Both the position numbers and the translations under genes were made by a program. Below, one piece after another: positions 7,511-34,145 of a DNA stretch of 45,020 nt. Source of the stretch: Gemmatimonadota bacterium (lineage in GTDB: Bacteria > Gemmatimonadota > Gemmatimonadetes > Gemmatimonadales > GWC2-71-9). The stretch is from assembly GCA_039591655.1 (NCBI GenBank), contig JBDHDE010000037.1, forward strand, positions 1-45,020, in the 5' to 3' direction. The notes below the pieces were generated by a model that was not told the DNA's origin, did no database searches, and saw only the letters and a list, made by a program, of their open reading frames with translations. Numbering within the stretch: position 1 is the stretch's first letter; each line of letters starts with the position of its first letter.

Positions 7511-7543
7511 GCGGCCTCCCGCTGAGGGGTGTGGCCTCGGAGA

Positions 7544-8077
7544 ATGCAAGCTACAGGACTAAAGGAAGGGCGGCAACCGAGACACCTCGTGCGGGCACCG
7601 GATGTGCTCACCGCGCTGCGGGTGCCGCTGGCCGTGGCCTTCGTCTTGGTGGAGAACCAGGGGTTCCGCTTCGGGATCCTGGTGTTGGCGGCGGTCACGG
7701 ACTTCTTCGACGGCTTCTGGGCTCGGCGCATCGGCGGCTCGCGCATGGGGGTGGTTCTGGATCCCGTGTGCGACAAGCTCTTCGTCGCCGGTGCATTCTT
7801 CGTGGTGATTCGCAGCGGTGTCCTCACGCCGCTCGAGGTGCTCGGCGTGCTGCTGCGCGACATCGTGGCGCTGCTGGCCTTTCTGGGGACCTGGATCCGC
7901 CGCCGGCCCACGACGCTCCCGGCTCGGGCGGGCGGGAAGGCGGTGACTGTAGGCCAGCTCCTCACCCTGCTTGCCTTCCTCGCCGGCTCCGACCTGTTGC
8001 GTCCGCTGGCCTGGGCCACGGCAGCCATCTCGGTGTACGCCATCGCCGACTACACCCGCTTTGCGAGGAACCGCTGA
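7544..8077 (+). CDS. CDP-alcohol phosphatidyltransferase family protein (PgsA-like)
   Basis: PDVLTALR and TDFFDGFWARR...GVVLDPVCDK signature. Confidence 0.9.
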   Translation: MQATGLKEGRQPRHLVRAPDVLTALRVPLAVAFVLVENQGFRFGILVLAAVTDFFDGFWARRIGGSRMGVVLDPVCDKLFVAGAFFVVIRSGVLTPLEVLGVLLRDIVALLAFLGTWIRRRPTTLPARAGGKAVTVGQLLTLLAFLAGSDLLRPLAWATAAISVYAIADYTRFARNR

Positions 8078-8604
8078 TGCCGATGCGCTTCTTGGCAACT
8101 GTGCTCGTTCTGGTGATCGCCGCTCCGCTCACGGCGCAGGAGCCCATGGAGCCGTTCGACGAGCCCGCCTCGCAGCCCTGGGCCAAGCTCGGCGTATTCG
8201 GGTTCGGTACCCGTCTGGGTGTGGATTTCGAGGGCGAAGGACAGCTCGTCGTGAGCGGGACCCTGGACGTCGGCTATGTCCTAACCCAGCAGCTGCGCAT
8301 CCGGGCCTCGGCGGACGTCGGGCTCTTCGGCGTTGATAACACCTACGTGGGGAACCTCGAGCTCGTGTTTCGTATCCTGCCGGATTCGGCTATTGCGGTG
8401 CCGTACGCGGGTTTGGGAGTCGGCCTGTTCGGGCGGGACGAGTGCGAATTGGATCCCGGCTGCCCGAGCCTGTGGGCGCAGTTCGTGCTCGGCTTCGAGG
8501 TACGGCTGCGGGACGAGATAAACTGGCTGGTGGAGTATCACCCGCAGGACGCCTTTCGGCGCCAGCGGCTGCTGATCGGCCTCACGACCCGGGGGAGGCG
8601 TTAG
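8077..8604 (+). CDS. Hypothetical secreted protein, small outer-membrane beta-barrel-like
   Basis: TGATG overlap with the previous stop; signal peptide ending LTAQ; alternating beta strands, VPYAGLGVG motif. Confidence 0.65.
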   Translation: MPMRFLATVLVLVIAAPLTAQEPMEPFDEPASQPWAKLGVFGFGTRLGVDFEGEGQLVVSGTLDVGYVLTQQLRIRASADVGLFGVDNTYVGNLELVFRILPDSAIAVPYAGLGVGLFGRDECELDPGCPSLWAQFVLGFEVRLRDEINWLVEYHPQDAFRRQRLLIGLTTRGRR

Positions 8605-8605
8605 G

Positions 8606-9022
8606 GTGCCCCAGAAGCGAGCCGTCCGCCTGGCGTGGAGTGGTGAGGGCCTGGCGTTCTCGGGTGGGGGCACGGCGCCGCCGTCTCCATCGGTGACGAT
8701 CGACGGGGACGGGGAGGCCGGCCCCAGCCCAATGCAGGCCCTGCTCCTGGCCTGCGCCGCCTGCTCGGGCGCCGACGCGGTGGTGATCCTGCAGAAGATG
8801 CGGGTGCAGCTATCCGCGCTCGAGGTCGAGGTCGAGGGGACCCGGCGGGACGAGGAGCCGCGGCGGTACGTGGCGGTACGGTTCCGGTTTCGGCTCGCGG
8901 GGGCGGGTCTGGATCGCGCCAAGGCCGAGCGTGCGGTATCCCTCTCTCTCGAGAAGTACTGCTCGGTCGTGCATTCCCTGGCGCCGGACGTGGACGTCGC
9001 ACACGACATCGAGATTGCGTAG
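8606..9022 (+). CDS. OsmC family protein (YhfA-like)
   Basis: GPSPMQALLLACAACSG...LQKMR...LSLEKYCSV. Confidence 0.9.
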   Translation: MPQKRAVRLAWSGEGLAFSGGGTAPPSPSVTIDGDGEAGPSPMQALLLACAACSGADAVVILQKMRVQLSALEVEVEGTRRDEEPRRYVAVRFRFRLAGAGLDRAKAERAVSLSLEKYCSVVHSLAPDVDVAHDIEIA

Positions 9023-9464
9023 CGTCATCGCGCTGCTGGTTGGGCTCGTCGCGGCCGCCGGCCCCGCCGCGGCCCAAGGGACCCTGGAATGGCAGGCCCA
9101 GGGGGTCGCTACCGTAACGGGGGCGGAGTTCTATGGCGGAGGCTTGGGGGTCGCCTACCGTACCGCGGGCCGTACCCGTGTGGGGTTCCTGGCCAGCGTG
9201 GGGGATCGTGACGGCGCCTTTGCGGGACGCGGCGAGCTCATGCTGTCGTACCACCTCAACCCGTACAAGCGTCGCGGACTCACGCCCTACGCGGGAGGGG
9301 GCCTCTCGGTCACGCTGACCGAGGACGCCAGCACGGAGTACATCCTGCTGGTCTTGGGCGTGGAGTCGAGCCCGGGGGGGCGGTTTGGCTGGTTCGCGGA
9401 GGTGGGTGTGGCAGGGGGAGTGCGGCTGGCATTGGGGATCCAGCTGCGCACGGGCCGGCGCTGA
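9015..9464 (+). CDS. Hypothetical secreted protein, small beta-barrel-like
   Basis: TTG start overlapping the osmC end; signal peptide ending AAAQ; LTPYAGGGLS and WFAEVGV strands. Confidence 0.6.
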   Translation: MRSVIALLVGLVAAAGPAAAQGTLEWQAQGVATVTGAEFYGGGLGVAYRTAGRTRVGFLASVGDRDGAFAGRGELMLSYHLNPYKRRGLTPYAGGGLSVTLTEDASTEYILLVLGVESSPGGRFGWFAEVGVAGGVRLALGIQLRTGRR

Positions 9465-18888: not shown

Positions 18889-18916
18889 TTGACACGCGCA
18901 ACCATTGGGGTAGATT
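18889..18916 (+). promoter_or_regulatory. Putative sigma70 promoter of the TBDR operon
   Basis: TTGACA-N16-TAGATT in an AT-richer intergenic region about 195 nt upstream of ATG 19112. Confidence 0.55.
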
Positions 18917-19111: not shown

Positions 19112-22100
19112 ATGACAGAGAATCGTCGAATTGCCTTCGGGCGCCTCGCACGGGTGCTGCTGGCCGTGGCCGTGCTTGCGCTGGGGGCCAGTGAACTCAC
19201 AGCGCAGGGCGTGGGCGGTAAGGTCCAGGGAACGGTGCTGGATCCCACCGGCCAGCCCGTCGCGAACGCCCAGGTCTTCGTCCTGGGAACCGCGTTTGCG
19301 GCGCTCACGAACGAGGATGGGTTTTACTTCTTTAACAACGTGCCCGCTGGTACCTACGACATGCGGGCACAATTCATTGGGTACCAACCCGCGGAAGTTC
19401 GCGCTCTTCGCGTGCTGGGCGACCAGACGCTGACCGTGAACTTCGGTCTCTCAGGCGCGGTGGCCCTCGAGGCCATCACGATCACGGCCGCTGAGACGCC
19501 GATCGTGCCGCGGGACCAGGTCACCTCCAAGACCACCATCACCGGACAGACCATCGATCAGCTACCGGTGGACGACCCCCGGGCGGCAATCAGCCTGCAG
19601 CCGGGCGTGGTCGAGTCGTGCACGGGCCGTGACTCGAATAGCCCGGCCTGTGTAAACGGATTGTCGCTCCGCGGCGGCCGGCCGGGTGAGGCGGTCGTCT
19701 ACGTCGACGGCGTGCCGGTACGGCGGCTGCGCACCGGCGGGGCCCAGCTCAATGTCGCCACCAACGCGACGGAGGAAGCGTCGGTGACCACGGGAGCGCT
19801 GGGCGCGGAGTACGGTGACGCGCAGTCCGGCGTGATCTCGCTGGTCACGCGCTCGGGCGGTCCGCGATTCCAGGGGAACCTGGTGTACGAGACCGACGAG
19901 GTGTTCGGTAACTCGATCAGCGTCGGCTTCAACCGGTTCGAGGGCTCCCTCTCCGGGCCGATCTTCGGCAACCTGACGTTCTTCGTCGGCGGCACGCTGC
20001 GCGGCGAGGTGTCCAACCGCCGCGGGATGGGCTGGGAGGATGTGCCGTACTACACGCTGGGCGGGCTGGACTCGACTCTGGGCCCGACCGTCACGATCGC
20101 TGGCGAGGCGGGTGACTCGGCTACCCTCGACATTCCCCGGTTTGTGCAGTTCACCGGCACGTGCCCGGAGGCCGACCCGGAGTCGCAGAGCGCCCTGCGG
20201 GACGAGATCCTTACCAACTACGGTCAGGAGTGCCAGGGTCGGCGGCTTCCGTATGACTTCAGCACGCAGTGGCGGGCAAACGCCAAGCTGACGTACTCGT
20301 ACGGCACCGGCTCGCGGGTCTCGCTCTCGGGCCTGTTGGACCAGGATCAGGACCGCACGAACCCCGGTAACGGCGTCTTCAACCCCGATGCCTACCAAGG
20401 GACGCGGACAAATTCCCAGGTGTACATCCTGAACTGGGTGCAGCAGGTGTTCCGCACTGCCGAGACCGAGCTGGCGTTCGACCTCAATCTCTCGTGGCAG
20501 ATCGACCGGCAGCGCGGCGGCGTGCTGGACAAGGAGTGGGACCTGAACAACCGCAGCCCGGCAATGGGGCTGAGCTTCTCCACCATGAAGTTCCTGGTGG
20601 ACTTCGACACGTTCTCGGCTGACACCGCCGACCAGTACGAGCTGATGGCGGATGGCCGGTCGCGCACGATCAACGCTCTAGAGAGCCAGGACGATTGGGA
20701 GCGGCTGATCAAGAACGTGCGCGACAACCTGGGCACGCGGTTGCCCTACCTCGACCGGGGGGATCTGCTCCAGAAGCAGACCTACCGGATGAACCCGTAC
20801 GGGATGATCACCGGTTGGCGCACCGGCGGTTTGGACCGCGGCTTCGGCCAGCTCGGCTACGAGCGCCGCGCCATCGGCCGGCTGAACGTGGACTGGCAGT
20901 TCGACCGCTACAACCGGCTCAAGTTCGGTGTCGAGGGAATGTCGGGCCGGGTCAACGAGTGGAATGCCAGCATTCAGGATCCGGCCTTCCAGGACATCTT
21001 TGCCCAAGACCCGAAGCGCTGGGCCGCGTACATTCAGGACCGCCTGGACCTGGGCGACGTGGTGCTGGAGCTGGGGCTGCGGTGGGACTCCTGGAATGCA
21101 GATGGTGTGTTCCCACTGACGCCGGCCCGGACCTTCACGCATCCGGCGTACGATCCCGACGTGCCGATCGAGCAGCTGACCTGCGTCGGCTCGGCGTGTG
21201 AAGCAGACTCCGCGATCTACGAGTTCGTCTGGGCGAAGGCCGAGACGCACACGGCGTGGTCGCCGCGGCTCCGGGTGTCTTTCCCGGTGACCGACCGGAC
21301 CAACGTCCGGCTGTCGTACGCGCACCAGGTGCAGTCGCCTGACGGCGAGAACGTGTACGGGTCGATGAACAACGACCTCACGATCACCAACACGAACGAC
21401 GCGTTCGGCGGCGACGTGCGGCACGGCAAGACGATCATGTTCGAGTTCGGCGTGCGGCACGCATTCACGCGCGACCTAGTGTTCGACCTTGCGATGTTCA
21501 ACAAGGACAAGGTGGCGGACCTCACCTACCGGATCATCGATTTCTTCGATCCGTTGGTGGAGCGTATCGCCCCGGTGAACGTGCTGACCAACGCAGACTT
21601 CGGCAACACGAAGGGCTTCGAGCTCAGCCTGTTGCAGCGTATCGGCAACTGGTTCAACGGGCAGGTCTCCTACACGTTCCAGGCTGCCAAGGGAACGGGC
21701 TCCAACCCGCGGACCTACCTCAATACCACCGCGCGTAGCTTCGTTGCCGTGACCGGTGACCGGCAGCCGCCGGCGCAGGCGACCTTCCGGACGGACGACG
21801 ACCGGTCGCACAACATCACCGGCTCGCTGTCGTTCAATTGGCCGAATGACTTCGAGCAGGGGACCTGGTACGGCCAGGTGCTGCGCAACGCGGGGCTGTT
21901 CATGCGGTTCCGCTTCGTGAGCGGTCTGCCGTACACCAAGCTCGTTGATGCGGGCAGAGGCCAGCAGGCATTCGGCGGCACGCCGTTCGGGCTGGAGGGC
22001 GAAAACGAGGACGACGTGCTGAACGGGCGCGAGCTGCCGTGGCAGTACAACTTCGATTTGCGGGTCACCAAGGGCTTGCGGCTAGGGCCGACCGATTGGA

Positions 22101-22507
22101 CGCTGTATGCCGATTTCCGGAACCTGTTCAACATCCGGAACGTGGTCGGGATCTTCGCCGAGACGGGCGACGTGACGAGCGAAGAGTACTTCGATAGCCA
22201 GGTCAGCTCGGAGCTCACCCGCTTGCGGGGCGACGCCGGTAGCGCGCGCCAGACCACCGTCATCAAGGACGGCGAGGAGATCGAGGCGATCGACGTCTCC
22301 GACTGTGATGGCTGGACGGGTACCGGCAATGAGGCCTCGTGTGTGCTGGTGCGGGGCGCCGAGGCGCGGTTCGGCAACGGCGACATGATCTACGATCTGG
22401 ACGAGCAGCTGACAGCGCTCGGGGCGTGGTATCAACGGTTCAACGGCGAGCAGGTGTTCCTGGGCAACCCGTTGCACATTCGCCTGGGCGTGGAGTTGGC
22501 CTTCTAA
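19112..22507 (+). CDS. TonB-dependent receptor with N-terminal carboxypeptidase-regulatory-like domain
   Basis: GGAGG RBS; signal peptide; GKVQGTVLD...GTYDMRAQFIGY; plug LRGGRPGEAVVYVDGVP...AEYGDAQSGVISLVTRSG; terminal strand IRLGVELAF. Confidence 0.92.
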   Translation: MTENRRIAFGRLARVLLAVAVLALGASELTAQGVGGKVQGTVLDPTGQPVANAQVFVLGTAFAALTNEDGFYFFNNVPAGTYDMRAQFIGYQPAEVRALRVLGDQTLTVNFGLSGAVALEAITITAAETPIVPRDQVTSKTTITGQTIDQLPVDDPRAAISLQPGVVESCTGRDSNSPACVNGLSLRGGRPGEAVVYVDGVPVRRLRTGGAQLNVATNATEEASVTTGALGAEYGDAQSGVISLVTRSGGPRFQGNLVYETDEVFGNSISVGFNRFEGSLSGPIFGNLTFFVGGTLRGEVSNRRGMGWEDVPYYTLGGLDSTLGPTVTIAGEAGDSATLDIPRFVQFTGTCPEADPESQSALRDEILTNYGQECQGRRLPYDFSTQWRANAKLTYSYGTGSRVSLSGLLDQDQDRTNPGNGVFNPDAYQGTRTNSQVYILNWVQQVFRTAETELAFDLNLSWQIDRQRGGVLDKEWDLNNRSPAMGLSFSTMKFLVDFDTFSADTADQYELMADGRSRTINALESQDDWERLIKNVRDNLGTRLPYLDRGDLLQKQTYRMNPYGMITGWRTGGLDRGFGQLGYERRAIGRLNVDWQFDRYNRLKFGVEGMSGRVNEWNASIQDPAFQDIFAQDPKRWAAYIQDRLDLGDVVLELGLRWDSWNADGVFPLTPARTFTHPAYDPDVPIEQLTCVGSACEADSAIYEFVWAKAETHTAWSPRLRVSFPVTDRTNVRLSYAHQVQSPDGENVYGSMNNDLTITNTNDAFGGDVRHGKTIMFEFGVRHAFTRDLVFDLAMFNKDKVADLTYRIIDFFDPLVERIAPVNVLTNADFGNTKGFELSLLQRIGNWFNGQVSYTFQAAKGTGSNPRTYLNTTARSFVAVTGDRQPPAQATFRTDDDRSHNITGSLSFNWPNDFEQGTWYGQVLRNAGLFMRFRFVSGLPYTKLVDAGRGQQAFGGTPFGLEGENEDDVLNGRELPWQYNFDLRVTKGLRLGPTDWTLYADFRNLFNIRNVVGIFAETGDVTSEEYFDSQVSSELTRLRGDAGSARQTTVIKDGEEIEAIDVSDCDGWTGTGNEASCVLVRGAEARFGNGDMIYDLDEQLTALGAWYQRFNGEQVFLGNPLHIRLGVELAF

Positions 22508-22521
22508 CGAGGAATCGGCGC

Positions 22522-22561
22522 GCGGGCGGCGCAGCGGTCGGGTGACCGCGGCGTCGCCCGC
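22522..22561 (+). other. Intercistronic GC hairpin with no U tract
   Basis: GCGGGCGGCGCAGCGGTC-GGGT-GACCGCGGCGTCGCCCGC: 18-bp stem with one mismatch and one G-U pair. Confidence 0.7.
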
Positions 22562-22587
22562 CTGAGGCGACAACATCTGAGGATCGG

Positions 22588-25500
22588 ATGATTATGAGGA
22601 CAAACTCGTTTATCCGCGCAGTCCGCGTTGCCGCGGTTATGGCGCTCCTGGGGGCGGTGAGCTTCCAGGCCGCGCAGGCGGAAGAGGGCCGCCGGGGCAG
22701 GCGCTCGCGTGGGGGCTTCAACCTCTTCGCGGCGCAGTTCGGCACCCTAGACGTCAACCGCGTCTTCTGCGGCATCAACAACCTCGGCGAGGTCTGCGTC
22801 GACCCGACGAACTCGCCGGGCGTGGGGGGCGGCTTCTGGCCGGTGGGTACCCCCAACCAGTACATCTTCAACTCGGGCCTGCAGCTGGCCGGGATCATAG
22901 ACGGACCGCCCGGCTTCGTGTGGAACGGTGACACGACCGGGGTCTTCTTCATGGACCCGAAGGGCACCGAGCCAGGCGGCGACCCGGTCACACTGACCTA
23001 CAACTCGCTGGACCCGGCTGATCTCGAGGCCTGGCCGACCCAGGCATTCGTGAGGGACACCGCGCTCTACGCCCCCGTCCTGATCGGGCGGAAGACGCTG
23101 GCGCAGCAGGACCTCTGGGTCCGGACGTGGGACGGGAATCCCAACGTCGCAGGCGGCCGGGTGCACCCTCTGGGAGTGCTCGTGGAGGAGCGCGGCCTCG
23201 CCTGGAACTTCCCGTCCGGCAATGAGGACATTGTCTATTTCGTTTACGACTTCTACAACATCTCGGCCACGGACCGGGCGGCGTACAACGGCCTGCACAC
23301 CGACGTCCAGGACAGCGTGTACGACATCGCCGTGGATTACGTGACGGGCACCGAGGCCCGGTTCGGGATCGACATCCCGGCAGAGGGCTACACGTTTACG
23401 GACTTCTACGCAGCGTTCTTCATGGACCCCGATGTGGGTACGGCGACGGAGAACTATTCGTCGGCCATCCTGCCGTTCGAGATGGCGCTTGCCTACAAGA
23501 GGGACTTCGTGGAGGACATCTTCACCTACTCGCCGGACATCAATGGTCCGCCGTTCTACCCCGCTCCCGGGTTCGTCGGGGTGAAGTACCTCAGGAGCCC
23601 CGTCGACCCGATCACGGGCCTCCAGATCGGGCTCACGATGTTCTCCAACACGCTGAACACGAGTACCGGGTTCCCGGATCCGGATGGCGTGGTCCAGATG
23701 TGGCGCTACATCTCGGGGAACATCAGCGTGGCGGCGGGGGACAACCCCTGCGACTTCCCGAACCCCAAGGAGCGGAGGTTGTGCTTCCTGTACCAACAGT
23801 TTGAAGACACCCGCTTCTATCAGTCCTCCGGGCCGTTCGATCTGGCCCCCGGTGGGACGGCGACCATCGTCGTGGCGTACGTGCACGCCGCGCCTGTGGC
23901 GGACGCGCTGCTCACCAGCGGGCAGATCGGCGGAGACCTCAAGCCGCTGACCCCGTACACGGGCGACTCGATCTTTGGGGGCGTCTGCGGCCGCAACCCG
24001 GGCAACGAATGCATCCGGCCGCTGGACTCGGTTGCCGGGTGGCTGACCCACAACGACGACAACGGCAACAGCGTGATCGAGCAGGACGAGGTCGTCTCGG
24101 TGCCGCGGTCGCTGCTGGACAAGGCGCTGGTGGCGCAGGCGGTGTTCGACAACAAGTTCCTGCTGCCGTTCGCGCCTGAGGTGCCGCCCTTCTTCCTGGT
24201 ACCGGGCGACAACACCGTTACGGTGGTGTGGGAGACGACGCCGTCGGAGGTGACGGGCGATCCGTTCTTCGGTATCGCGTCGGATCCGTTGTCTCCGTTG
24301 TTCGACGCCAACTTCCGCGAGTTCGACGTTGAGGGCTACCGGATCTACCGGGGCCGCGTGGCCAGCCAGTTGGTGCTGGTCGCGGAGTACGACTATGCGG
24401 GCACGGTGTTCACCGACAACTGGGGTGGGTTCGCCTATGACGGCAACTGCGCTCCGGAGCTGGGCATCACGACCGACTGCCCGACGTTCCCCAACGACGT
24501 CCCGCTGATTGATGATGTCGCGCAGGTGAAGGCGGGGTCACGCACGGAGCTGGCCGACGGGTCGGTGTTCATCGTGGATGCCGATACGGCGGTCACGGGT
24601 GGTGGGAACACCCAGTTCGCCGGGCTGCGCGACACGGGCGTGCCGTTCGCGTTCGTGGATAACGACGTGCTGAACGGCTTCACATACTACTACGCAGTGA
24701 CGGCGTACGACGTAAACTCGTATGCCTCCGGCCCCACCTCACTGGAGTCGCCGCTGGTGAGCCAGTCGACGACGCCGCGCAGCACTGCGGCCAACAAGGT
24801 GGCGGCCGATGACGTGACACTCGAGCTGATCGACCGGGACAACAACGTGCTGGACCCGGCGGCGGCGTATCCGACGATCGACCCGGCGACGGGCACGTTC
24901 AGCGGCCCGATGCCGCCTTCGGGTGCCTTCGAGGCGCTGGGTGCTCAGCTGTTTGCCGACAACCTGGTGACCCCGGGTTTGGAGGCGTTCGTCGAGGTCG
25001 ACTCGGTGGTCCTGTTCTACTATCACGACGGGACGTACTACCTGCATGGGACAGCGACGGGTATCTCGTCATTCAGCCCTGGGCTGCCGCTCGGACAGGA
25101 GGACGGCCCGGCGGTGATGGGCCCGATCGAGGGGCTGCTGGAGGCGAACTCGGCCCTGGCCGACTCGCTCGGCCTGGGTGAGGTGCCGTGGGCTGGCAAG
25201 ATTCAGACTCAGATCTCGGCCAACCCGGTGGCGTTCCAGTCGAAGGATACCGACTGGCATCCGCAGGTGGAGGGTGCGTTCTTCGACGTGCAGGATCCGC
25301 CGATGTTCGATGCCAACGGTGCGGTGGACTACGGTGGCTCGCGCTGGTTCGACGGAGCCAACGAGACAATGGCCCACCCGACCCTTCTGGGCGGGCACGG
25401 CATGCTGACGGGAGTCACGGCGATCTACTCGCCGGCGCCGTTTGCGCCGTGGGAGAATGCAGACGCCCACACGCGGCGTCCGATGCAGACGGTGTACCAC

Positions 25501-26398
25501 GGGTTCCGCGCTGCGGACATACAGGTGTACTGGGGTGCGCCGGGCGTGATCGACTCGGTGGTCGACATCACGCACAACATGTTGATGCAGTTCCAGCCGC
25601 AGAACCGCGTGGGTTGGGGCTTCATCCCGGACGCTTCATGCGCCGGTTGTAAGACGTTGGTGCCGGCCCCTGACGGCCTGATCACGTATGAGGACTGGCC
25701 CCAGGGGGCGTGCTTCACGGGCATGGGCAACTGGGATCAGACAGGTTGCGCGTCGCGCACGTGGGCGCCGACGATCACCGCAGCCGGTGGTCTCCTGCCT
25801 ACCGACACCGACGGTGACCACACGAACGGCACCGAGGGTTCAGGGTTCGGCCTGTGGATCAACAGCGAGGTGTTCTACTTCAACGTTGCCGCAATGCCGA
25901 CCAACGTGATGTGGACCCTGCGGACCTACATGGGTCAGGTGAACCGTGAAGGTGGGACAGGGAACTACTCCTTCGCGCGGGACAGGGAACTACTCCTTCG
26001 CGCCCGAGCCGTCCAACGCCCCGATTCCGGGGCTGAGGATCCGGGCGACGACGGGCCAGGGGGCACTGTACCCCGATACCGCGACTGTCGACCTCGACTC
26101 CGTGCACACTGTGCCGGATCCGTACTATGTGACGACGTCCATCGAGGCGACGGGGGACGAGAAGACCTTACAGTTCATCAACCTGCCCACGCAGGCGATC
26201 ATTCGGATCTACTCGTTGGGCGGGATCCTCGTGTCAATGATCGAGCACAACGATCCCGCGGGCGGCGGTACGGCCACGTGGAACCTCCGGAACCGGAATG
26301 CCCAATTCGTCGCCAGCGGCGTGTACTTCTACCACGTCGAGACGGCCACGGGTCAAGAGAGGGTAGGCCGGTTTACGATCGTCAACATGGCGCGGTAA
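22588..26398 (+). CDS. Large secreted protein with FN3-like segment and T9SS-CTD-like C-terminus; frameshifted as assembled by a 25-bp duplication
   Basis: Signal peptide ending AAQA; FN3-like PGDNTVTVVWE...EGYRIYRG...FTYYYAVTAYD. The tail VHTVPDPYY...LQFINLP...IRIYSLGGILV...WNLRNRNAQFVASGVYFYHVE lies in another frame (25946..26398). Deleting one repeat copy gives 3786 nt, a single 1261-aa ORF. Confidence 0.85.
25954..26003 (+). repeat. Exact 25-bp tandem duplication
   Basis: GGGACAGGGAACTACTCCTTCGCGC at 25954-25978 and again at 25979-26003. Confidence 0.97.
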
Positions 26399-26408
26399 CG
26401 GACACCAG

Positions 26409-26442
26409 CGGCGGGGCGGGGCCTGAGCGCCCCGCCCCGCCG
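26409..26442 (+). other. Intercistronic GC hairpin with no U tract
   Basis: CGGCGGGGCGGGGC-CTGAGC-GCCCCGCCCCGCCG, a perfect 14-bp stem just upstream of the RBS of the porV-like gene. Confidence 0.75.
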
Positions 26443-26456
26443 AATCGGAGGCACGT

Positions 26457-27608
26457 ATGATGCGTTTGTTCATTCGAGTCATAGGCGTGGCGGTGGTGGT
26501 CGGCCTGTTCGTGACAGCGCCTGCGAACGCGCAACAGGTTGTGGATGAGCCGACAAACCTCGCGGACGTCGATAACACCGCATACGGAACCACGGCAGGA
26601 GAGTTTCTACTCCTCGGGGCAGGTGCCCGCGGGGCGGCTCTCGGCGGTGCCTATGCGGCCTTGGTCAACGACATCGACGCGCTGTACTGGAACCCGGCTG
26701 GCCTGGCCCTGATGGATCGCGGCGGTGTGCTCGTGTCGACCTACAAGTACGTCGCAGACACGCGTTACAACTGGGCCGGCATCGCGTTCCCGTTCGGCGG
26801 TGGCGCCCGCGCCGTCGGGGTACACGTGGGCACGTTCGGTTTCTCGAACCAGCCCGTGTACACGGTCGACGCCCCCGACGGTGATGGGACCCAGTACGAC
26901 GTTCGATCCACCTATTTGGGTCTGACCTACTCGCAGAACTTCTCGGATCGGTTCTCGGCCGGTATCACCGGGAAGCTCATCGTGGATGCGCTGGGCGAGA
27001 CAACGGCGAGCTCGTACGCGTTGGACTTCGGCACGAGCTTCCATGCGCGGATCGGCGAGCGACCCATCTCGGCATCGTTCGTGATTCAGAACCTCGGGTC
27101 CTCGCTCAAGCATGACGGCACGCCGCTGGGGGTGGGGGTCGAGCGTGATCCGCCACAAGGTCAGCAGAACATCCCGCAGCAACCGGCCGAAGCGCGCCTG
27201 CGTACGAAGGATTGGGCGCTGCCGATCATGTTCCGGTTCGGGGTCGCGTTCGACTTCATCAACAACTCAGCCAGCCGACTCACGGTGATGGGCGAGTTCA
27301 ATCAGCCGAACAACTCCGATCCGTCGGCGGGTGGCGCGTTGGAATTCGCGCTGCTAGACATCAGCCAGAGCGGATTCGGCGCGATGCTGCGGGGCGGCTA
27401 CCAGTATCAGACCGACAACAACATCGATCCGACCGGTGCCGCCGGCTTCGAGTCGACGGCGAGCGGCCAGGGTTTGGACGGGCTGTCGTTTGGTGGCGGG
27501 CTGATGTTCGATCGCGGCTACGGGTTCGGCTTGTCGCTGGACTACGCGTATAGGAATCTCGGGCTCCTGAATGCGACGCACTACTGGAGCGCTACAGTCC
27601 ACTGGTAG
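26457..27608 (+). CDS. PorV/PorQ family outer-membrane beta-barrel (FadL-like)
   Basis: Signal peptide; EFLLLGAGARGAALGGAY...ALYWNPAGL family motif; ALDFG; LDYAYRNLGLL; terminal W. Confidence 0.88.
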   Translation: MMRLFIRVIGVAVVVGLFVTAPANAQQVVDEPTNLADVDNTAYGTTAGEFLLLGAGARGAALGGAYAALVNDIDALYWNPAGLALMDRGGVLVSTYKYVADTRYNWAGIAFPFGGGARAVGVHVGTFGFSNQPVYTVDAPDGDGTQYDVRSTYLGLTYSQNFSDRFSAGITGKLIVDALGETTASSYALDFGTSFHARIGERPISASFVIQNLGSSLKHDGTPLGVGVERDPPQGQQNIPQQPAEARLRTKDWALPIMFRFGVAFDFINNSASRLTVMGEFNQPNNSDPSAGGALEFALLDISQSGFGAMLRGGYQYQTDNNIDPTGAAGFESTASGQGLDGLSFGGGLMFDRGYGFGLSLDYAYRNLGLLNATHYWSATVHW

Positions 27609-27621
27609 GTATTGAGGCGGG

Positions 27622-27647
27622 CGGGGGTCGGCTGCGGCCGACCCCCG
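27622..27647 (+). other. Intercistronic GC hairpin with no U tract
   Basis: CGGGGGTCGGC-TGCG-GCCGACCCCCG, a perfect 11-bp stem. Confidence 0.7.
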
Positions 27648-27664
27648 ACGCTGAGCTATTTGGC

Positions 27665-29035
27665 ATGCGGAAACTGGGTTGGGTTCTCGCACTGGCCGCA
27701 CTGCTGGTCCTGACGTCGGCACTCGCGGCACAGACAGAGGGGGATTTGGAGCTGACTGCCGCGCGGTTCTACCGCGGCGGCACGACGTGGGTGAACGCGT
27801 TCTGCCAGGTGCCGTTCTCCCTGGTGCAGCCGCTCTCGGAGGACGTTGGCGGCGTCTACGCCATCTCCGTGAGCGTGCGCGACAGTTCCGGGCTCGTGTT
27901 GCACGAGTCCGAGTGGTCGCAAGCGGTGTCGTCGGCCGTGCTGCGCGTGGAAGGGACGTCCTCGGTCGAGTACTTCACGTTCGCCGCGCAGCCGGGCCTC
28001 TACACCATGGAGGTGGCGGTCAGCGATTCAGCGTCGGGCCGCGTCATGCGGCGGAGCGTAGAGGTTCGGGCGTTTGACGCAGCACCAGGGACGTCTGACC
28101 TGCTCCTGGCACCCACAATGCGGCGCGGTGGGCCCGGCGATACGGTGGCGGCGCCCGGGGAGGTCAGGAAGGGCACGCTGTTCCTCACCGCGGCGACGCG
28201 GCCCGTGCTCACGCCGACGCAGGCGACCCTGTACTACTACCTCGAGTTGTATCCGGGGCAGCAGGTGACGGCGAGGGTGGTGGCTCGGGTCATCGGAGCC
28301 GGGGGTCGGGAGTTGATCGTGGCGCCCCCGCTGGAGCTGGACGTTCCGCCGGCGGGAGGGGTGGTCAACTCCGGGCTGAACCTCGAGGGGCTGCCGCCCG
28401 GCGAGTATCGGTTGGAGATGACGGTGCGGTTGGGCGACGAAGAGCTGCGCCGGGACGCCGGATTCACCATGGCGGGCTTCGACACCGATGTTGCCTTGGC
28501 GCAGAGTCCCGCGGAGGAGGCGGGCCGGTTCGCCCACCTGACCGAGGTGCAGATGGACTCGCTGCAGGGTCCGCTGATCCACCTCGAGGAGGCGGATGAG
28601 CGGGGCGTGTACGGCGATCTCTCGGTGGAGGGGAAACGCAATTACCTGGAGCGGTTCTGGGCGAAGCGCGATCCCACGCCGGGGACGGCGGCCAACGAGA
28701 TGGCCGACGAGTTCTACGCGCTGGTGGCAGAGGCGAATCGGCGGTTTCGGGAGGGTGGCGCGGCAGGGGCGCCGGGGTGGCGCACCGACCGCGGCCGGAT
28801 TCTGATCCGGTACGGGGAGCCGGAGTTCCGGCTCCAGGAGGCGGTGCCCGACGGGCCGCGTCCGTGGGAAGTGTGGCGCTACGCAACCGGTCGCGGATAC
28901 AAGTATGTGTTTGTCGACGAGACAGGCTTCGGCAACTGGGCGCTGGTGTACAGCAACAACGTGCGAGAGCCGACCCGTGCTGGCTGGGAGGCGTTCTTCC
29001 ACGATGACGATTTACGAAGGGTTGAAACTTTCTGA
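27665..29035 (+). CDS. GWxTD domain-containing secreted protein
   Basis: Signal peptide; Ig-like N-terminal part (LPPGEYRLEMTV); FWAKRDPTPGT.ANE...EANRRF...GWRTDRGRILIRYGEP...WEVWRY...YVFVD. Confidence 0.92.
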   Translation: MRKLGWVLALAALLVLTSALAAQTEGDLELTAARFYRGGTTWVNAFCQVPFSLVQPLSEDVGGVYAISVSVRDSSGLVLHESEWSQAVSSAVLRVEGTSSVEYFTFAAQPGLYTMEVAVSDSASGRVMRRSVEVRAFDAAPGTSDLLLAPTMRRGGPGDTVAAPGEVRKGTLFLTAATRPVLTPTQATLYYYLELYPGQQVTARVVARVIGAGGRELIVAPPLELDVPPAGGVVNSGLNLEGLPPGEYRLEMTVRLGDEELRRDAGFTMAGFDTDVALAQSPAEEAGRFAHLTEVQMDSLQGPLIHLEEADERGVYGDLSVEGKRNYLERFWAKRDPTPGTAANEMADEFYALVAEANRRFREGGAAGAPGWRTDRGRILIRYGEPEFRLQEAVPDGPRPWEVWRYATGRGYKYVFVDETGFGNWALVYSNNVREPTRAGWEAFFHDDDLRRVETF

Positions 29036-29084
29036 CGAGACGAATGGTGGTCGATAGACCCAACGCATAGGGAGTGAGGACCAT

Positions 29085-30140
29085 ATGAACCGATTTCTCT
29101 TAGGCGTGATGAGCCTGGGGCTCGTGGTTACCGCAGGCTGCACGGAGGATCCGACTGAGGCTCTCCGCACCGGCCCCGCGCGGGTGGTGACGTCCCGGAC
29201 GTATCTCCAATTACTCCCTGGCGACTCGGCCTCGGTCATCGGGCGGACGCTCGACGCACAGGGGAATGCGGTCGTGCCGCTTCCGGAGGTGATCTCGGAG
29301 AACGCGAGTGTGGCTACGGTGAGCGTCGACGACATCCTTTCGGGCAACCCGTCGCCGGAGCTCGCCTTCTTCGTGAAGGGCATCAATCCGGGGCAGGCCA
29401 CCATCACGGCGACGGCTGAAGCGGTGTCGACGTCGTTCACGACGCTGGTGTTCCCGCTGACGTTCCCCGGGACGGCGGCGGTGAACAGCTCCGGCCGTCT
29501 CGATGAGGTTACCCTCACGGCCGATCCGGTGATCGAGTTCGACACCTCGGGCACGAGCGGCGTGCTGGTGGACGGGGCGTCGGCGGACATCCTCAGCCTG
29601 ACCGCCAGCGAGATGGTGTTCTCCTGGTCGGCTGCGGCGGCCGTCGCGGCCGCCGAGGTCACGCTCACCGACGTCCTGTTCCTGGGCGAGTTCCCGCTGG
29701 CGGAGCTCGTGCTGGCGGACCCGGTGGCGCTGACCCAGGACGGCGACGAGCCGGCCAACGACCTGGACGTGCCTGGTGGCGGCACGCCCACGACGGCCGC
29801 CTTCGGATCGGCCAACATCAACCGGGGATCCTCGGCGAGCGACGATGTCCGTGACTTCTGGTGCGTCACGATCCCTGGCGGTGATACCAGCTTCGAGGTC
29901 GCTTGGGGCGGCACCGGCGCCGACGCGGACCTCGACATTTTCGTGCAGTCCGGCTGCTCCACCGCGTTCGACTACTTCGCCGACGTCTTGGGCTTCGGCA
30001 TGGCGACTGGGGCCAACCCCGAGGCCGCCAGTGCGGTCTTGCCGGCGGGGGACTATCTGATCAACGTCGAGGTGTACGACCCGCACGATGTGCCGGATCC
30101 GTGGTGGTACCAGATCCGGGTCTTCCTGACGCCGGCCTAA
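29085..30140 (+). CDS. Lipoprotein with Ig-like and PPC (pre-peptidase C-terminal)-like domains
   Basis: Lipobox VTAGC; SENASVATV...GQATITAT (Big_2-like); DADLDIFV...ANPEAA...LPAGDYLINV (PPC-like). Confidence 0.75.
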   Translation: MNRFLLGVMSLGLVVTAGCTEDPTEALRTGPARVVTSRTYLQLLPGDSASVIGRTLDAQGNAVVPLPEVISENASVATVSVDDILSGNPSPELAFFVKGINPGQATITATAEAVSTSFTTLVFPLTFPGTAAVNSSGRLDEVTLTADPVIEFDTSGTSGVLVDGASADILSLTASEMVFSWSAAAAVAAAEVTLTDVLFLGEFPLAELVLADPVALTQDGDEPANDLDVPGGGTPTTAAFGSANINRGSSASDDVRDFWCVTIPGGDTSFEVAWGGTGADADLDIFVQSGCSTAFDYFADVLGFGMATGANPEAASAVLPAGDYLINVEVYDPHDVPDPWWYQIRVFLTPA

Positions 30141-30197: not shown

Positions 30198-30233
30198 GAG
30201 CGCCCCCGGTTCCCACGGGAACCAGGGGCGCTC
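30198..30233. terminator. Probable bidirectional terminator between convergent genes
   Basis: GAGCGCCCC(C)GGTTCC-CACG-GGAACC(A)GGGGCGCTC between stops at 30140 (+) and 30269 (-). Confidence 0.7.
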
Positions 30234-30268: not shown

Positions 30269-31645
30269 CTAACGTGTGGGATCCCCTGAGCCGGGTGCAT
30301 AGAGCGAGCCGATCCGCTGCGCCCGGAAGATGTAGAGTCCGTCGATCCCGGTGACCTCCCAGGCGAGGTTGCCGGCCTCGTCGAATTCGACGACCCTGCT
30401 GCCACGACCGAACGAGATCAGCGCGTGCCCGTTCGTGAGGTACTGGGTGCTCCCTCCCACCGACGCGAAGGTGTCGGGCCCATCCTCGAATCCCACCACC
30501 AGCACAGCCGTCTTCGTCACCGGGTTGAGGAGGTATCGTGCGCCCCGGGACGGCGGCGTGGAGCCGTTGTCGAGCAATTGGACCATGCCGGGCCCAGCCC
30601 GCCGCACCCCGTGCTGGCGCGCGAATCCGGGATCCGGGTCGTTCACGAAGGAGAACTGGTTCCGGACGCCGCCGAAGCGCCACAACACCTCGCCCGTCGC
30701 GCTGTCCACCTTCGTGATCTCGTTCAGGCTGCGGAACGACAGCAGCAGGTTGCCGTCCTCGTCGAAATCGATGCCGTTGCCGTGGGTGAAGTTCACGTTG
30801 GGACCGTTGGGCACCGCGGGCAGGTCCGTGATCTCGAAGTGATCGAACGCGTTCCACTCGAACAGCAGCTCGCCATCGATGCTCAGGTGTTGGACGACGG
30901 TGGCCGTGACCTGGGCGGAGTCCACGCCGCCCACGCCCGAGAGGTCCATGGTCCGCGTCTCATCACACAGGATCCAGGCACTGCCGTCCGCCTCGAGCAT
31001 CACCTCGTGGAACCGAGTCGGACGCCCCACGCAGCTCAAGTTCCCGATCTCCTCGCCGAGCTCGTTCAGCACCCCGAACACCCGATCCGAGCCCGACAGG
31101 CCCAGCAGCGTGTAATGCCCGTCGGGGTGCACCTGAAAGGAGTTGAGCGTGCCGTCGGGGGTGTGCTTATACCACACGACCCGGCCCGTATTGTCCACGA
31201 TCACCGGCCCGCCCGGCAGAGACAGCGCGACGAAGCCGGGCGTGGTGTCGCTGCCCTGCGCGCCGATCGCGGGGATCCAGTCGGGCAGGGTGTCGGTGAG
31301 GAACTCCGAGGTGTCGACCCCGGTGATCACCGAGTCGCCCAGCAGCAGGCTGGTCTCCACCAGATACGTGGCGGACGGCTCCAGTCCCAATACGGGCACC
31401 CGCGCCACCCCGTCCTCGAACTCGTAGGGTGGCGACTCCTGTGCCGCGCCGCCCTCCTGCCAGTAGCGCACGAAGGCGGCGTCGAACCCGGCGCCCGTGA
31501 CCACCGAGACGGCGCTGATCACGTTGATCGGGTTGGCCTGGACCTCGACGCTCTCGATCGTCGCCGTGGGTCCCTGGTCCTCGCCGCAGGCCGCGAACGC
31601 TACCGTGGCGGCCGCGACCGCCGCCCAATGTCGAATGTCACGCAC
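30269..31645 (-). CDS. Aryl-sulfate sulfotransferase (ASST)-like lipoprotein, paralogue 1 (458 aa)
   Basis: GGAGGA before GTG 31645; lipobox FAAC; IVDNTGRVVWY, FEWNAFDH, FTHGNGI, LLLSFRS, FARQH. Confidence 0.82.
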   Translation of the reverse strand: MRDIRHWAAVAAATVAFAACGEDQGPTATIESVEVQANPINVISAVSVVTGAGFDAAFVRYWQEGGAAQESPPYEFEDGVARVPVLGLEPSATYLVETSLLLGDSVITGVDTSEFLTDTLPDWIPAIGAQGSDTTPGFVALSLPGGPVIVDNTGRVVWYKHTPDGTLNSFQVHPDGHYTLLGLSGSDRVFGVLNELGEEIGNLSCVGRPTRFHEVMLEADGSAWILCDETRTMDLSGVGGVDSAQVTATVVQHLSIDGELLFEWNAFDHFEITDLPAVPNGPNVNFTHGNGIDFDEDGNLLLSFRSLNEITKVDSATGEVLWRFGGVRNQFSFVNDPDPGFARQHGVRRAGPGMVQLLDNGSTPPSRGARYLLNPVTKTAVLVVGFEDGPDTFASVGGSTQYLTNGHALISFGRGSRVVEFDEAGNLAWEVTGIDGLYIFRAQRIGSLYAPGSGDPTR

Positions 31646-33032
31646 GCTGTTCCTCCGTTTGGTTCTCGAAAGCCCGCTCTGAGTGTACCGCACCGCACCT
31701 CGTGGGGGCCACCGCCGGGCCGCTGCGGGGCGAATCAGTGGCAGCGACGGAGCGGCTTCGTACTGCGCGGGTCTCAGTGGGTGGGGTCGTCCGCGCCGGG
31801 CCGGTACAGCGATTGAATGCGCTGCGCGCGGAACGCGTAGATCCCGTCGAGGCCGGTGAGCTCCCAAGCGCGGCTCCCCGTCTCATCCACCTCGACGACC
31901 CTTCCGGCGCGGCCGAATGAGACCAGGGTGTGTCCGTTCGAGAGGTACTGCGTGCTCCCTCCGGTGCGGCTGTGGGCATCCGGCGCGTCCCTGAAGTCGA
32001 TGGTGAGCAACGCGGTCTTGCTCTGGGGATTGATCAAATAGCGGATCAACCGGGACGGGGGGTTTGCCCTGTTATCGAACAACTGGATCCAGCTGGGCCC
32101 GGCGGACCGCAGACCGTGCTGAAACATGAACCCCCAATCTGGATCATTGAGGACTGTAAACTCGTTGCGCCGGCCCCCGAAGCGCCACATCACCTCCCCC
32201 GTCGTCCTGTTGACCTTCGTGACCTCGGCGAGGGCGCGGAAGCAGAGGAGTAGGTTGCCGTCCGCGTCGAAATCGAGGGCGTTGCCGTGCGTGAAGTTCA
32301 AGTTGGGGCTGCGGGGTATACGGGGGACGTCCGTGATGTCGAAGTGATCGAAGGCGTTCCACTCGAACAGCACGGTACCGCCGGCGTCGAGGTGCTGCAC
32401 CACGGTTCCCTGGACGTCCACCGAGTCGAAGCCGCCGTAGGCGGTCAGGTCCATGACCCGGTTCTCATTGCACAGCAGCCACACGCTGCCGTCGGCCTCC
32501 ATGCGTGCCTCATGCGCCCGGGTGCGGTAGCCGACGCACTTGAGTATCTGCTCTTCATTGCCCAGCTCGTCCAGCACGGCGAACTGCCGCCCCGTGTCTG
32601 CGATCCCCAACAGGGTGTAGCGCCCGTTGGGATGCGCCTGGAAGTTGTTGACGGTGCCATCCGACACATACTTGTACCACACGACCCGGCCCGTATTGTC
32701 CACGATCACCGGCCCGCCCGGCAGAGACAGCGCGACGAAGCCAGGCGTGGTGTCGCTGCCCTGCGCGCCGATCGCGGGGATCCAGTCGGGCAGGGTGTCG
32801 GTCTGGAACCCCGAGGTGTCGACCCCGGCGATCACCGAGTCGCCCAGCAGCAGGTTGGTCTCCACCAGATATGTGGCGGACGGCTCCAGTCCCAATACGG
32901 GCACCCGCGCCACCCCGTCCTCGAACTCGTAGGGTGGCGACTCCTGCGCCGCGCCGCCCTCCTGCCAGTAGCGCACGAAGGCGGCGTCGAACCCGGCGCC
33001 CGTGACCACCGAGACGGCGCTGATCACGTTGA
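31170..33032. repeat. Near-identical ~358-bp direct repeat (31170-31527 and 32675-33032) inside the two ASST-like genes
   Basis: Offset is exactly 1505 bp; about 8 substitutions counted by eye. Confidence 0.9.
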
Positions 33033-33150
33033 CGGGGTTGGTCTGCAGCTCGACGCTCTCGAGTGTCGCCGTGGGGCCCTGATCGTCGCCGCAGGCCGCG
33101 AATGCCACAGCGAGCGCTCCGGCGGTCCACCACCGACTCACGTTCTGCAT
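31774..33150 (-). CDS. Aryl-sulfate sulfotransferase (ASST)-like lipoprotein, paralogue 2 (458 aa)
   Basis: GGAGGA before ATG 33150; lipobox FAAC; FEWNAFDH, FTHGNAL, FMFQH, LFDN. Confidence 0.82.
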   Translation of the reverse strand: MQNVSRWWTAGALAVAFAACGDDQGPTATLESVELQTNPVNVISAVSVVTGAGFDAAFVRYWQEGGAAQESPPYEFEDGVARVPVLGLEPSATYLVETNLLLGDSVIAGVDTSGFQTDTLPDWIPAIGAQGSDTTPGFVALSLPGGPVIVDNTGRVVWYKYVSDGTVNNFQAHPNGRYTLLGIADTGRQFAVLDELGNEEQILKCVGYRTRAHEARMEADGSVWLLCNENRVMDLTAYGGFDSVDVQGTVVQHLDAGGTVLFEWNAFDHFDITDVPRIPRSPNLNFTHGNALDFDADGNLLLCFRALAEVTKVNRTTGEVMWRFGGRRNEFTVLNDPDWGFMFQHGLRSAGPSWIQLFDNRANPPSRLIRYLINPQSKTALLTIDFRDAPDAHSRTGGSTQYLSNGHTLVSFGRAGRVVEVDETGSRAWELTGLDGIYAFRAQRIQSLYRPGADDPTH

Positions 33151-33197
33151 CCCGTTCCTCCCTCCCGCGGTACCCCGCGTCGACGCGGCGGGTCCTT

Positions 33198-34145
33198 CTA
33201 TGCCGCCCGTTGCGCTGCCGCGGCTCCCTCCGGCGCACCCGCCCGGCTGCTGCTCACCGTGAGCCACATCAGGTAAACCAGCGCCACCCATACCGCTGTT
33301 CCCAGGGCCGCGTGCATCCCCCGCCAGAAGGAGGGCAGGTGGGTGAGCACCATGACGGCGCCCACGGTCACCTGGGCGACCACCAGCCCCACGGCCGTCC
33401 ATGCGGTCCCCTGGAGGCGCCGTGGCGCCTGTTTGCGCCGCAGGCCCATGCCGAGCCCCAGCACGTGGAACAGGAGGGCGTAGGCGAGCAGCCGGTGCGT
33501 CCAGTGGATGTGGGGCAGGCCCGAGCCCGTCGCTGAGGGCCAGATCTCGCCGTTGCAGAGGGGGAACCCCAGGCATGCCGGAGCGGCGCCCGTGGTGGCG
33601 GTCATGCCCCCCAGCAGGAGCACCGCGGCCGCCAGGACCGTGGCCGCGATGATGCCGCCCCTGGCGGGCCGCTCCCCCGCGGGCAACAGGGTGACCCCGG
33701 CGTGCACCCCGGCTCTGAGGCCCAGGACGACCAGCGTGGCGAGCAGGGCGATCCCCGTGCCGAGGTGGAGCACCACCGTGTGAGGCGGCAGCTCGAGCTT
33801 GACGGTTATGGCCCCGAGGATCGACTGGAGGATGAGCAGGCCCAGCGCCAGGAGCGCGGGCCGCTGGGTGCCGCCGGGTCCGGAGCCCCCTGCCGTGCCA
33901 CGCAGGCGCAGGGCGTGGGCCACCACCACGGCCGTGAGGGCCGTGAGGCCCAGAACTGCGATCCGGTGGGAGTACTCCAGCACGGTCTCGATGGAGTCGA
34001 GAGCGGGCACCAGCCTGCCGTTGCACAGCGGCCAGTCGTCGCCGCATCCCATTCCCGAGTTGGTGATTCGCACTACGAAGCCCAGTACGATCACGGCGTA
34101 GGCGAATCCGGCTGTCACATACGCGAGTCGGCGGAGTGTCCTCAT
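33198..34145 (-). CDS. ctaA: Heme A synthase (COX15/CtaA family)
   Basis: GMGCGDDWPLCNG, EYSHR, VVLHL, ACLGFPLCNG, HWTHR, GMHAA. Confidence 0.9.
   Translation of the reverse strand: MRTLRRLAYVTAGFAYAVIVLGFVVRITNSGMGCGDDWPLCNGRLVPALDSIETVLEYSHRIAVLGLTALTAVVVAHALRLRGTAGGSGPGGTQRPALLALGLLILQSILGAITVKLELPPHTVVLHLGTGIALLATLVVLGLRAGVHAGVTLLPAGERPARGGIIAATVLAAAVLLLGGMTATTGAAPACLGFPLCNGEIWPSATGSGLPHIHWTHRLLAYALLFHVLGLGMGLRRKQAPRRLQGTAWTAVGLVVAQVTVGAVMVLTHLPSFWRGMHAALGTAVWVALVYLMWLTVSSSRAGAPEGAAAAQRAA

Follow-up and report, generated by a model that had tools for sequence, protein, structure and literature searches.

What takes the place of the lid at the cell surface when a TonB-dependent receptor (TBDR) is followed by no SusD gene? 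This question is raised by an operon in a stretch of 45,020 nucleotides from a Gemmatimonadota bacterium (GenBank assembly GCA_039591655.1, contig JBDHDE010000037.1). This whole stretch, referred to below as the window, is contig C37 of a genome of 3.3 Mb (G000) that is 95% complete. The operon encodes a TBDR, a large type IX secretion system (T9SS) cargo protein, an outer-membrane barrel of the PorV/PorQ family, a GWxTD protein and a lipoprotein. We give even chances to the reading that it specifies a TonB-driven importer in which the cargo, exported through SprA and docked on the barrel, replaces SusD as the substrate-capture partner. The predicted tethering of the cargo on the barrel is computationally well supported, and a role of the cargo as the putative lid of the TBDR is plausible.

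The operon and its products

The operon (positions 19112-30140, plus strand) consists of five co-oriented open reading frames (ORFs) with short gaps between them. Its coding features, together with the linked sprA gene, are the following.

19112-22507, +: TBDR of ~1131 aa, assigned by Pfam domains
22588-26398, +: large T9SS cargo, frameshifted in the assembly, ~1261 aa when intact in relatives
25954-26003, +: exact 25-nt tandem duplication within the cargo gene (copies 25954-25978 and 25979-26003)
26072-26398, +: T9SS C-terminal sorting domain (CTD) of the cargo, type-A-like, marginal (TIGR04183 24.1 versus cut-off 23)
26457-27608, +: PorV/PorQ-family outer-membrane barrel, 383 aa, of an operon-specific lineage (NF033709, tree)
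27665-29035, +: GWxTD protein, 456 aa (TIGR04514, PF20094)
29085-30140, +: lipoprotein, 351 aa, with a lipobox and a weak PPC-like domain
40358-45020, +: 5' part of sprA (T9SS translocon), outside the operon but linked to it; the rest is on contig C11

An earlier note, made from the sequence letters and a list of their ORFs, had described this layout, and most of it was borne out. The ORF positions and short intergenic gaps agree with a five-gene operon, and the proposed gene identities hold for the TBDR (Pfam plug, barrel and CarboxypepD_reg), the barrel (NF033709, 140.8 versus 90) and the GWxTD protein. Signal peptides and a lipobox can be recognised in the proteins by visual inspection, no predictor having been applied. 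As that note had stated, no SusD follows the TBDR, the next gene being that of the CTD cargo, and SprA is encoded ~10 kb away (start at 40358; TIGR04189, 509 versus 200).

The TBDR comprises a signal peptide, CarboxypepD_reg, a TonB-box-like stretch, a plug and a barrel ending in a C-terminal Phe. The extracellular loops of its barrel are very large and contain Cys, and the protein lies outside the SusC/RagA family (TIGR04056, 35.2 versus a cut-off of 368).

The body of the cargo matched no Pfam or NCBIfam family. In its structure model (residues 1-1130, pLDDT 87.5) the signal peptide is followed by a beta-supersandwich N-domain (48-526), an FN3 domain with an insertion (527-733; structure match with Z ~11.9) and a third domain (~736-1130), beyond which lies the CTD. 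The N-domain resembles the beta-supersandwich N-domains of GH15, GH94, GH65 and GH116 (best Z 18.9, rmsd 3.2, 253 aligned residues) and contains the conserved charged residues D280, D282, R373, D407 and R409. The model has no (alpha/alpha)6 catalytic barrel, residues 527-1130 being beta-rich with FN3, which sets it apart from the GH15, GH65, GH94 and GH116 enzymes. The cargo family counts 498 representatives at E <= 1e-10. The N-domain and FN3 are conserved among orthologs and the third domain is variable; in many paralogs the N-domain has diverged beyond recognition while FN3 and the CTD persist.

The GWxTD protein has a signal peptide, two Ig-like domains and a GWxTD domain, and it falls within its family by both profiles (TIGR04514, 78.4 versus 28; PF20094, 39.4 versus 26.9). 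Its model found generic Ig-like structures only (best Z 10.9), with the GWxTD domain itself barely covered, and a literature search for GWxTD proteins gave no relevant paper. The lipobox of the lipoprotein is followed by acidic residues; its sequence is divergent and its position conserved. Five more GWxTD-like proteins, three of them in tandem, are encoded in the genome away from any triplet (C16:62390-68682, C16:46395-47816 and C17:31773-34175).

Conservation of the gene order

The gene order was examined in loci from a phylum sample of 151 genomes, which are related and hence not independent, and 62 of which contain the cargo. From the stronger matches 38 cargo-selected loci were drawn, 33 at class level and five of another class, from the family f10, taken as Glassbacteria on the basis of a 72%-identical protein bearing that name. 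The conserved order that the earlier note had made a test of its proposal was found in the class-level loci: the TBDR lies directly upstream of the cargo in 32/33, the barrel directly after it in 31 of the 32 that could be scored, and the GWxTD gene next after the barrel in all 30. A pattern search places a lipobox gene after the GWxTD gene in 27 of the 29 loci that could be scored, and inspection by eye does so in the remaining two; an M24 peptidase precedes the operon in 30/33. A contig search with a single cargo returned one locus only, 100% identical over residues 1-419.

All five cargo-selected f10 loci contain the triplet of TBDR, cargo and barrel without a GWxTD gene. The triplet was also found in 12 of 13 hand-picked barrel loci, the thirteenth being cut by a contig end, and a GWxTD gene was present in 0/12 Glassbacteria-type loci. 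Since the triplet occurs without GWxTD in Glassbacteria, we regard the core as a three-gene unit, to which the GWxTD protein and the lipoprotein are lineage additions. In three triplets (L089-L091) the cargo, of 1330-1430 aa and without a Pfam match, is related to the window family by its CTD only.

Other phyla were covered by a plasmid collection and by unaligned Atlas clusters (Ignavibacteriota, Fidelibacterota), which serve as leads only. The Rhodothermus marinus plasmid pRMAR01 (L072:5648-18160) carries a TBDR, a hypothetical protein and a PorV/PorQ barrel, followed by a peptidoglycan-recognition protein (Amidase_2) and a serine hydrolase, and is possibly equipped in this way with a peptidoglycan-scavenging unit. 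This triplet is also flanked by an FG-GAP CTD protein and sits between two CRISPR-Cas loci.

The cargo CTD and its barrel

The CTD of the window cargo qualifies as type A by its marginal TIGR04183 score, and 34 of 36 orthologous CTDs match the same profile at E <= 0.01. It stays below the type B cut-off (CHU_C, 19.1 versus 27) and has no TIGR04131 match. The TIGR04183 match and the confidently folded CTD together support the Ig-like domain that the earlier note had expected.

The contact between CTD and barrel, also foreseen there, is predicted with an ipSAE of 0.90, compared with 0.05 for the best of three controls; at least 86% of contacts are common to the runs, and the partner pLDDT is at least 80. 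Among solved pairs 116 of 157 attain the ipSAE mark, as do 2 of 215 mismatched ones; this calibration is roughly applicable to the complex. Conservation is higher at the predicted interface than elsewhere in the CTD (0.77 versus 0.60) and barely so in the barrel (0.65 versus 0.62).

The barrel exceeds the PorV/PorQ family cut-off, and its sole sequence match in the PDB is PorV (6h3i_F, E 1e-12). It scores below the PorV and PorQ equivalog cut-offs (NF033710 and NF033711; 44 versus 250 and 64 versus 220), and because porU-adjacent barrels also miss these cut-offs, a tree is the better test of PorV orthology. In a quick version of such a tree, which included part of the operon barrels as well as "solo" rows with unchecked neighbourhoods (L099-L112), another barrel of the genome, that of contig C22, clusters with the porU-adjacent PorVs from other classes (SH-aLRT 99), the barrel of the operon falling into a separate group. 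The latter is therefore a dedicated paralog, though one cargo of the same genome has no barrel of its own. That cargo (67% identical) and its TBDR (44% identical) are divergently transcribed at the end of contig C35 and the start of contig C6 (L073:11886-19245, L074:1-423) and may share the operon barrel. Of the "private" barrel of the earlier note, the lineage separate from the general PorV thus stands and exclusive use by one cargo is in doubt. The 3' part of the second cargo is 96-100% identical to the window copy at the DNA level, which suggests recent gene conversion.

A tblastn search had suggested that the operon barrel was the only PorV of the genome; this was ruled out by a hidden Markov model (HMM) search, which found three PorV-family barrels. 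The PorP family (TIGR03519) gave no match for the barrel at E <= 0.1 and none in the genome, the latter search being without a positive-control match.

Inspected by eye, cargo copies without an adjacent barrel (L034, L052, L058, L060 and C6) mostly deviate in the loop after the first CTD strand and in the last residues. The loop and last residues, conserved in the operon copies, are possible specificity determinants.

The reading frame of the cargo gene

The cargo ORF as called (22588-26460, 1290 aa) has its final ~160 residues out of frame, and the CTD is read in a different frame (25946-26398), because the 25-nt tandem duplication shifts the reading frame. The ~1260-aa CTD cargo of the earlier note therefore corresponds to the intact form found in relatives and not to the window copy as assembled. 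Judged on assembled contigs only, the duplication is very probably an assembly artefact in a stretch common to the paralog. The paralogous cargo is split over the C35 end and the C6 start; both contigs break within ~6 bases of the start of the duplication, and C6 has a single copy. Paralog and window cargo are 96% identical over the 646 nt before the duplication and nearly identical over ~150 nt after it. Furthermore, 30 of 32 TBDR-linked cargo orthologs are intact full-length ORFs with a CTD (by a length filter; L064 is split), and a library protein (P0085) has a frame error of another kind at this place. A contig from run X2 lacks the extra 25 nt; it may derive from the paralog, nearly identical there, and would in that case be compatible with a window gene that is truly broken or phase-variable, the duplication existing in the cell and removing the CTD. 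Given the contig breaks, the near-identical flanks and the intact orthologs, we consider this quite improbable.

The split cargo (L064:8194-12441) consists of three ORFs in an otherwise complete operon, and the TBDR of L040 is likewise split. Other exact tandem duplications, of 16-64 nt and of lengths that are not multiples of three, occur in contigs C9, C30, C80, C101, C120, C130 and C140; some of them may be similar assembly errors.

The secretion background

Among the 151 genomes sprA was found in 120, including all 62 with the cargo, and the cargo in 0/31 sprA-negative genomes (the two lists were matched by hand); 58 of the 120 sprA-positive genomes, including that of a member of the same genus (G059), have no match to the cargo. 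On the same strand and within ~25 kb downstream, sprA is present in 27 or more of 47 class-level relatives. PorU was not found in the genome studied here; in the sample it was found in 0/136 Gemmatimonadetes genomes and in 15/15 genomes of other classes, which serve as an internal control for this negative result. GldL, GldM and GldN were each found in 0/151 genomes in a search without a positive control; GldK and PorG were not searched. A T9SS in Gemmatimonadetes has been mentioned as possible (PMC11285876).

There are four CTD-like matches in the genome. A secreted protein with a weak CTD-like tail (C13:46533-48995) is a candidate substrate of the general PorV. A 141-aa protein on contig C7 (L077:3177-3599), encoded between selB-like and clpB-like genes, is made up of nothing but a signal peptide and a CTD (TIGR04183, 23.9 versus 23) and might serve SprA or PorV as a plug or placeholder.

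The proposed uptake context

SusD (PF07980) was not found in the genome in a search whose control matched, other SusD-like Pfam families not having been searched genome-wide; ExbB/TonB genes are present. Genomes of families f10-f12 contain 4-13 PorV-family barrels each and SusD in 0/15, and in the SusD-rich family f7 (14/16) this cargo was found in 0/16.

Outside the window, an uptake context is best supported by the alginate locus of R. marinus, in which a tonB receptor, a T9SS-CTD protein (hypA), a PorV/PorQ barrel (hypB) and hypC are encoded among alginate lyases (PMC9530828); by this analogy the module would serve uptake. The term "SusD" occurs 0 times in the available text of that paper. 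The xylan polysaccharide utilization locus (PUL) of R. marinus likewise contains a TBDR, a CTD hypothetical protein and another hypothetical protein (Rmar_1070-1072), beside a separate susCD pair (PMC6987092).

A neighbourhood scan of Glassbacteria-type loci covered 69 selected proteins. By a strict count 5/12 loci have carbohydrate-related neighbours (glycosidase, beta-helix, esterase, sugar kinase or symporter). Four more, next to GFO-type oxidoreductases or to a sensor kinase with a propeller, bring the loose count to 9/12, and three lie beside heme-synthesis genes. The substrate of the window module is as possibly a peptide or glycopeptide as a glycan.

The proposed mechanism and its alternatives

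In the mechanism that we propose, Sec would carry all five proteins across the inner membrane, as their signal peptides suggest. The operon's own barrel, and not the general PorV, would then recognise the cargo CTD in SprA, a step to which family membership, the tree and the predicted complex all point. Since no PorU sortase was found in the class, the CTD would stay uncut and the cargo would remain bound to the barrel, like PorZ on PorQ or PG1035 on PorP. We consider these three steps, taken jointly, probable. FN3 and the third domain might then hold the N-domain off the membrane, where it may bind a glycan or glycopeptide and pass it to the TBDR loops, after which TonB-ExbBD would open the TBDR plug, as is established for this receptor family. 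The GWxTD protein is likely a periplasmic or surface scaffold and the lipoprotein likely an accessory surface binder, both being class-specific additions.

Several observations weigh against this mechanism. The success of the CTD-barrel prediction may reflect likeness to solved complexes, because PorV-CTD structures exist (PMC10994853), and the prediction shows no specificity for the operon barrel over the C22 barrel. Second cargo copies occur without an adjacent barrel and mostly without a TBDR of their own (L052, L058, L060 and the genome's own C35/C6 copy). Fold likeness of the N-domain alone shows no function, and an Atlas search with the third domain gave no usable match. Within the bacterium's own family 49 of 74 genomes have SusD, and many carry the module and SusD together. 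The window locus has no sugar-enzyme neighbours and lies behind an M24 peptidase with a housekeeping-type promoter. Export through SprA is a matter of inference, because GldL, GldM and GldN, needed in Bacteroidota for cargo release, were not found; in Flavobacterium johnsoniae the energy-requiring step is the release of carrier and substrate from SprA (PMC10994853; PMC12635249). Finally, across 26 loci the pair with the strongest rate covariation was that of TBDR and cargo N-domain (partial r 0.83), and after length matching this pair tied with TBDR and barrel (0.59 versus 0.57).

The cargo might sit on the barrel and have a role apart from the TBDR, that of an adhesin or of a structural protein at the surface, with the operon reflecting co-expression only. 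Its beta-rich architecture with FN3 would suit such a role, as would the cargo paralogs without adjacent TBDR or barrel (L060 and the second copies in L052 and L058) and the failure of covariation to single out the TBDR-cargo pair; PorP-like barrels are known to bear type B CTD adhesins (PMC9143113). We nevertheless hold this unlikely, as the adjacency of TBDR and cargo is kept across classes and in Rhodothermus, even with an unrelated cargo body (L089-L091), and a published polysaccharide locus has the triplet in its transporter slot. Distinctly unlikely, in our view, is a surface enzyme (an epimerase, lyase or hydrolase with a galactose-mutarotase-like fold) making fragments for import by the TBDR, instead of a passive lid. 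In its favour are the conserved aspartates and arginines of the N-domain and the likeness of this domain's fold to mutarotases, a PL26 lyase and a GH174 fucanase (Z 12-14). The best fold matches, however, are non-catalytic N-domains, the protein has no Pfam or NCBIfam match, the acids could bind calcium, and it is the N-domain that diverges past recognition in many paralogs while FN3 and the CTD stay.

The absence of GldL, GldM and GldN matches (0/151, against SprA in 120 genomes) allows yet another explanation: the module would do housekeeping work, in a T9SS without a motor or in envelope assembly, and the TBDR (like P. gingivalis PG0534) or the pull of TonB on it would help to free barrel-cargo complexes from SprA. 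Translocon release in F. johnsoniae indeed needs energy (PMC10994853), PMC5445135 lists a T9SS component that resembles a TBDR, the operon shows conserved linkage to sprA and lptFG, and its promoter is of a constitutive type. A housekeeping function is difficult to reconcile with the 58 sprA-positive genomes that have no match to the cargo, including the same-genus G059, and with the many genomes that have one PorV-family match only (E <= 1e-20), and the multi-copy cassettes with sugar neighbours suit uptake better; we regard this explanation as highly improbable. The importer with a barrel-docked capture partner remains the reading that we prefer.

Relation to known systems

Several of the parts have counterparts in described systems. 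In the attachment complex of Porphyromonas gingivalis (PorZ-PorQ and PorU-PorV, PMC5562754) a type-A-like CTD protein that retains its CTD is likewise held by a PorV/PorQ-family barrel. The window CTD scores weakly against the tails of PorZ and PorU, the cargo body is unrelated to these proteins, no sortase was found in the class, and a TBDR is encoded alongside the pair. Type B CTD proteins on PorP/SprF barrels (PorE-PorP-PG1035, PMC9143113) also combine one cargo with an adjacent dedicated barrel and non-covalent anchoring, and SprB-SprF is a further case of a CTD protein displayed non-covalently on a FadL-like barrel (PMC9143113). By analogy only, the position of the GWxTD gene resembles that of porE as a possible periplasmic partner gene. 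In contrast to these systems, the window barrel is of the PorV/PorQ family and the CTD lies below the type B cut-off; type B loci are not described with a TBDR in the portion of the literature available. BamG-BamH of the Bacteroidota BAM complex (PMC12578637) likewise places a FadL-like 14-stranded barrel bearing a surface protein beside a larger barrel, but with lipoproteins as partners, BamA as the large barrel and no T9SS export.

As in SusC/SusD, a TBDR is followed by a putative surface binder, and in the R. marinus alginate locus the triplet is found in the transporter slot. Here the TBDR is not of the SusC family, and the TPR lipoprotein gives way to a T9SS cargo of ~1260 aa with a barrel of its own, the contact of cargo and TBDR being putative. 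The module resembles a SusC/D pair made of T9SS parts and lies outside both the SusC/D and the type B/PorP families. The order of TBDR, CTD hypothetical protein and barrel is the same in the R. marinus alginate (tonB-hypA-hypB-hypC) and xylan (Rmar_1070-1072) PULs, the barrel being named in the alginate locus only. In the available parts of those papers the genes are given as annotation, without a mechanism; hypA is shorter (2181 nt), and its likeness to the cargo is one of gene order and annotation. Non-covalent CTD display on a dedicated FadL-like barrel is therefore known already, and the triplet order is in print as annotation. For the module as a system we found no description in the literature searched, subscription papers and supplements lying outside that search.

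Regulatory signals and neighbouring genes

The following signals flank or punctuate the operon.

18889-18916, +: sigma-70-type promoter (TTGACA, 16 nt, TAGATT), a similar site occurring in 28/30 orthologous loci
22508-22587, +: stem-loop between the TBDR and cargo genes (z -2.76; z < -2 at this place in 85% of 33 relatives)
26409-26444, +: stem-loop between the cargo and barrel genes (z -3.79)
30198-30233, +: strong hairpin at the operon end, facing convergent arylsulfotransferase genes (z -4.50)

A stem-loop follows every gene of the operon, the strongest standing after the last. The single promoter proposed in the earlier note is a lone match at chance level for the 14-kb region; in its favour, 28 of 30 orthologous TBDRs have a comparable site upstream, against ~1% of shuffles, by a pattern relaxed post hoc after the strict sigma-70 pattern had given 1/29. 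The single terminator proposed there agrees with the strong final hairpin, which has a weak U-tail and was not called by a terminator scan.

Two tandem arylsulfotransferase-like lipoprotein genes, nearly identical in their N-terminal halves, occupy positions 30269-34047 of the minus strand, and an arylsulfotransferase gene is close to the operon in five relatives. Two small beta-rich secreted ORFs with outer-membrane-barrel-like ends and without a Pfam or NCBIfam match surround an OsmC gene at 7498-9464.

Implications

We tentatively suggest, as a rather doubtful generalization for now, that the triplet represents a third outer-membrane capture design across the FCB group, namely a T9SS-exported lid clipped non-covalently to a PorV-type barrel and built in Gemmatimonadetes by SprA and barrels without the PorU sortase or the GldLM motor, the latter considered necessary for ejecting cargo. 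Soils and sediments harbour Gemmatimonadota and related FCB lineages in abundance, and the capacity of such lineages for polymer uptake is judged by SusC/D counts (PMC10469786). If the triplet is an alternative capture system, lineages without SusD and with up to 13 PorV-family barrels would be mis-scored for uptake. The proposal, if true, would also assign a function to an unnamed family of ~1200-aa proteins and place GWxTD proteins in a context for the first time. The lid idea is testable in R. marinus, a cultured species in which triplets occur, one lying in an alginate locus whose enzymes are characterised. A seemingly motor-less and sortase-less T9SS raises a real added question on how export is powered in the class Gemmatimonadetes, and the presence of SprA without detectable GldL, GldM or GldN in 120 genomes makes the energising of cargo release directly testable.

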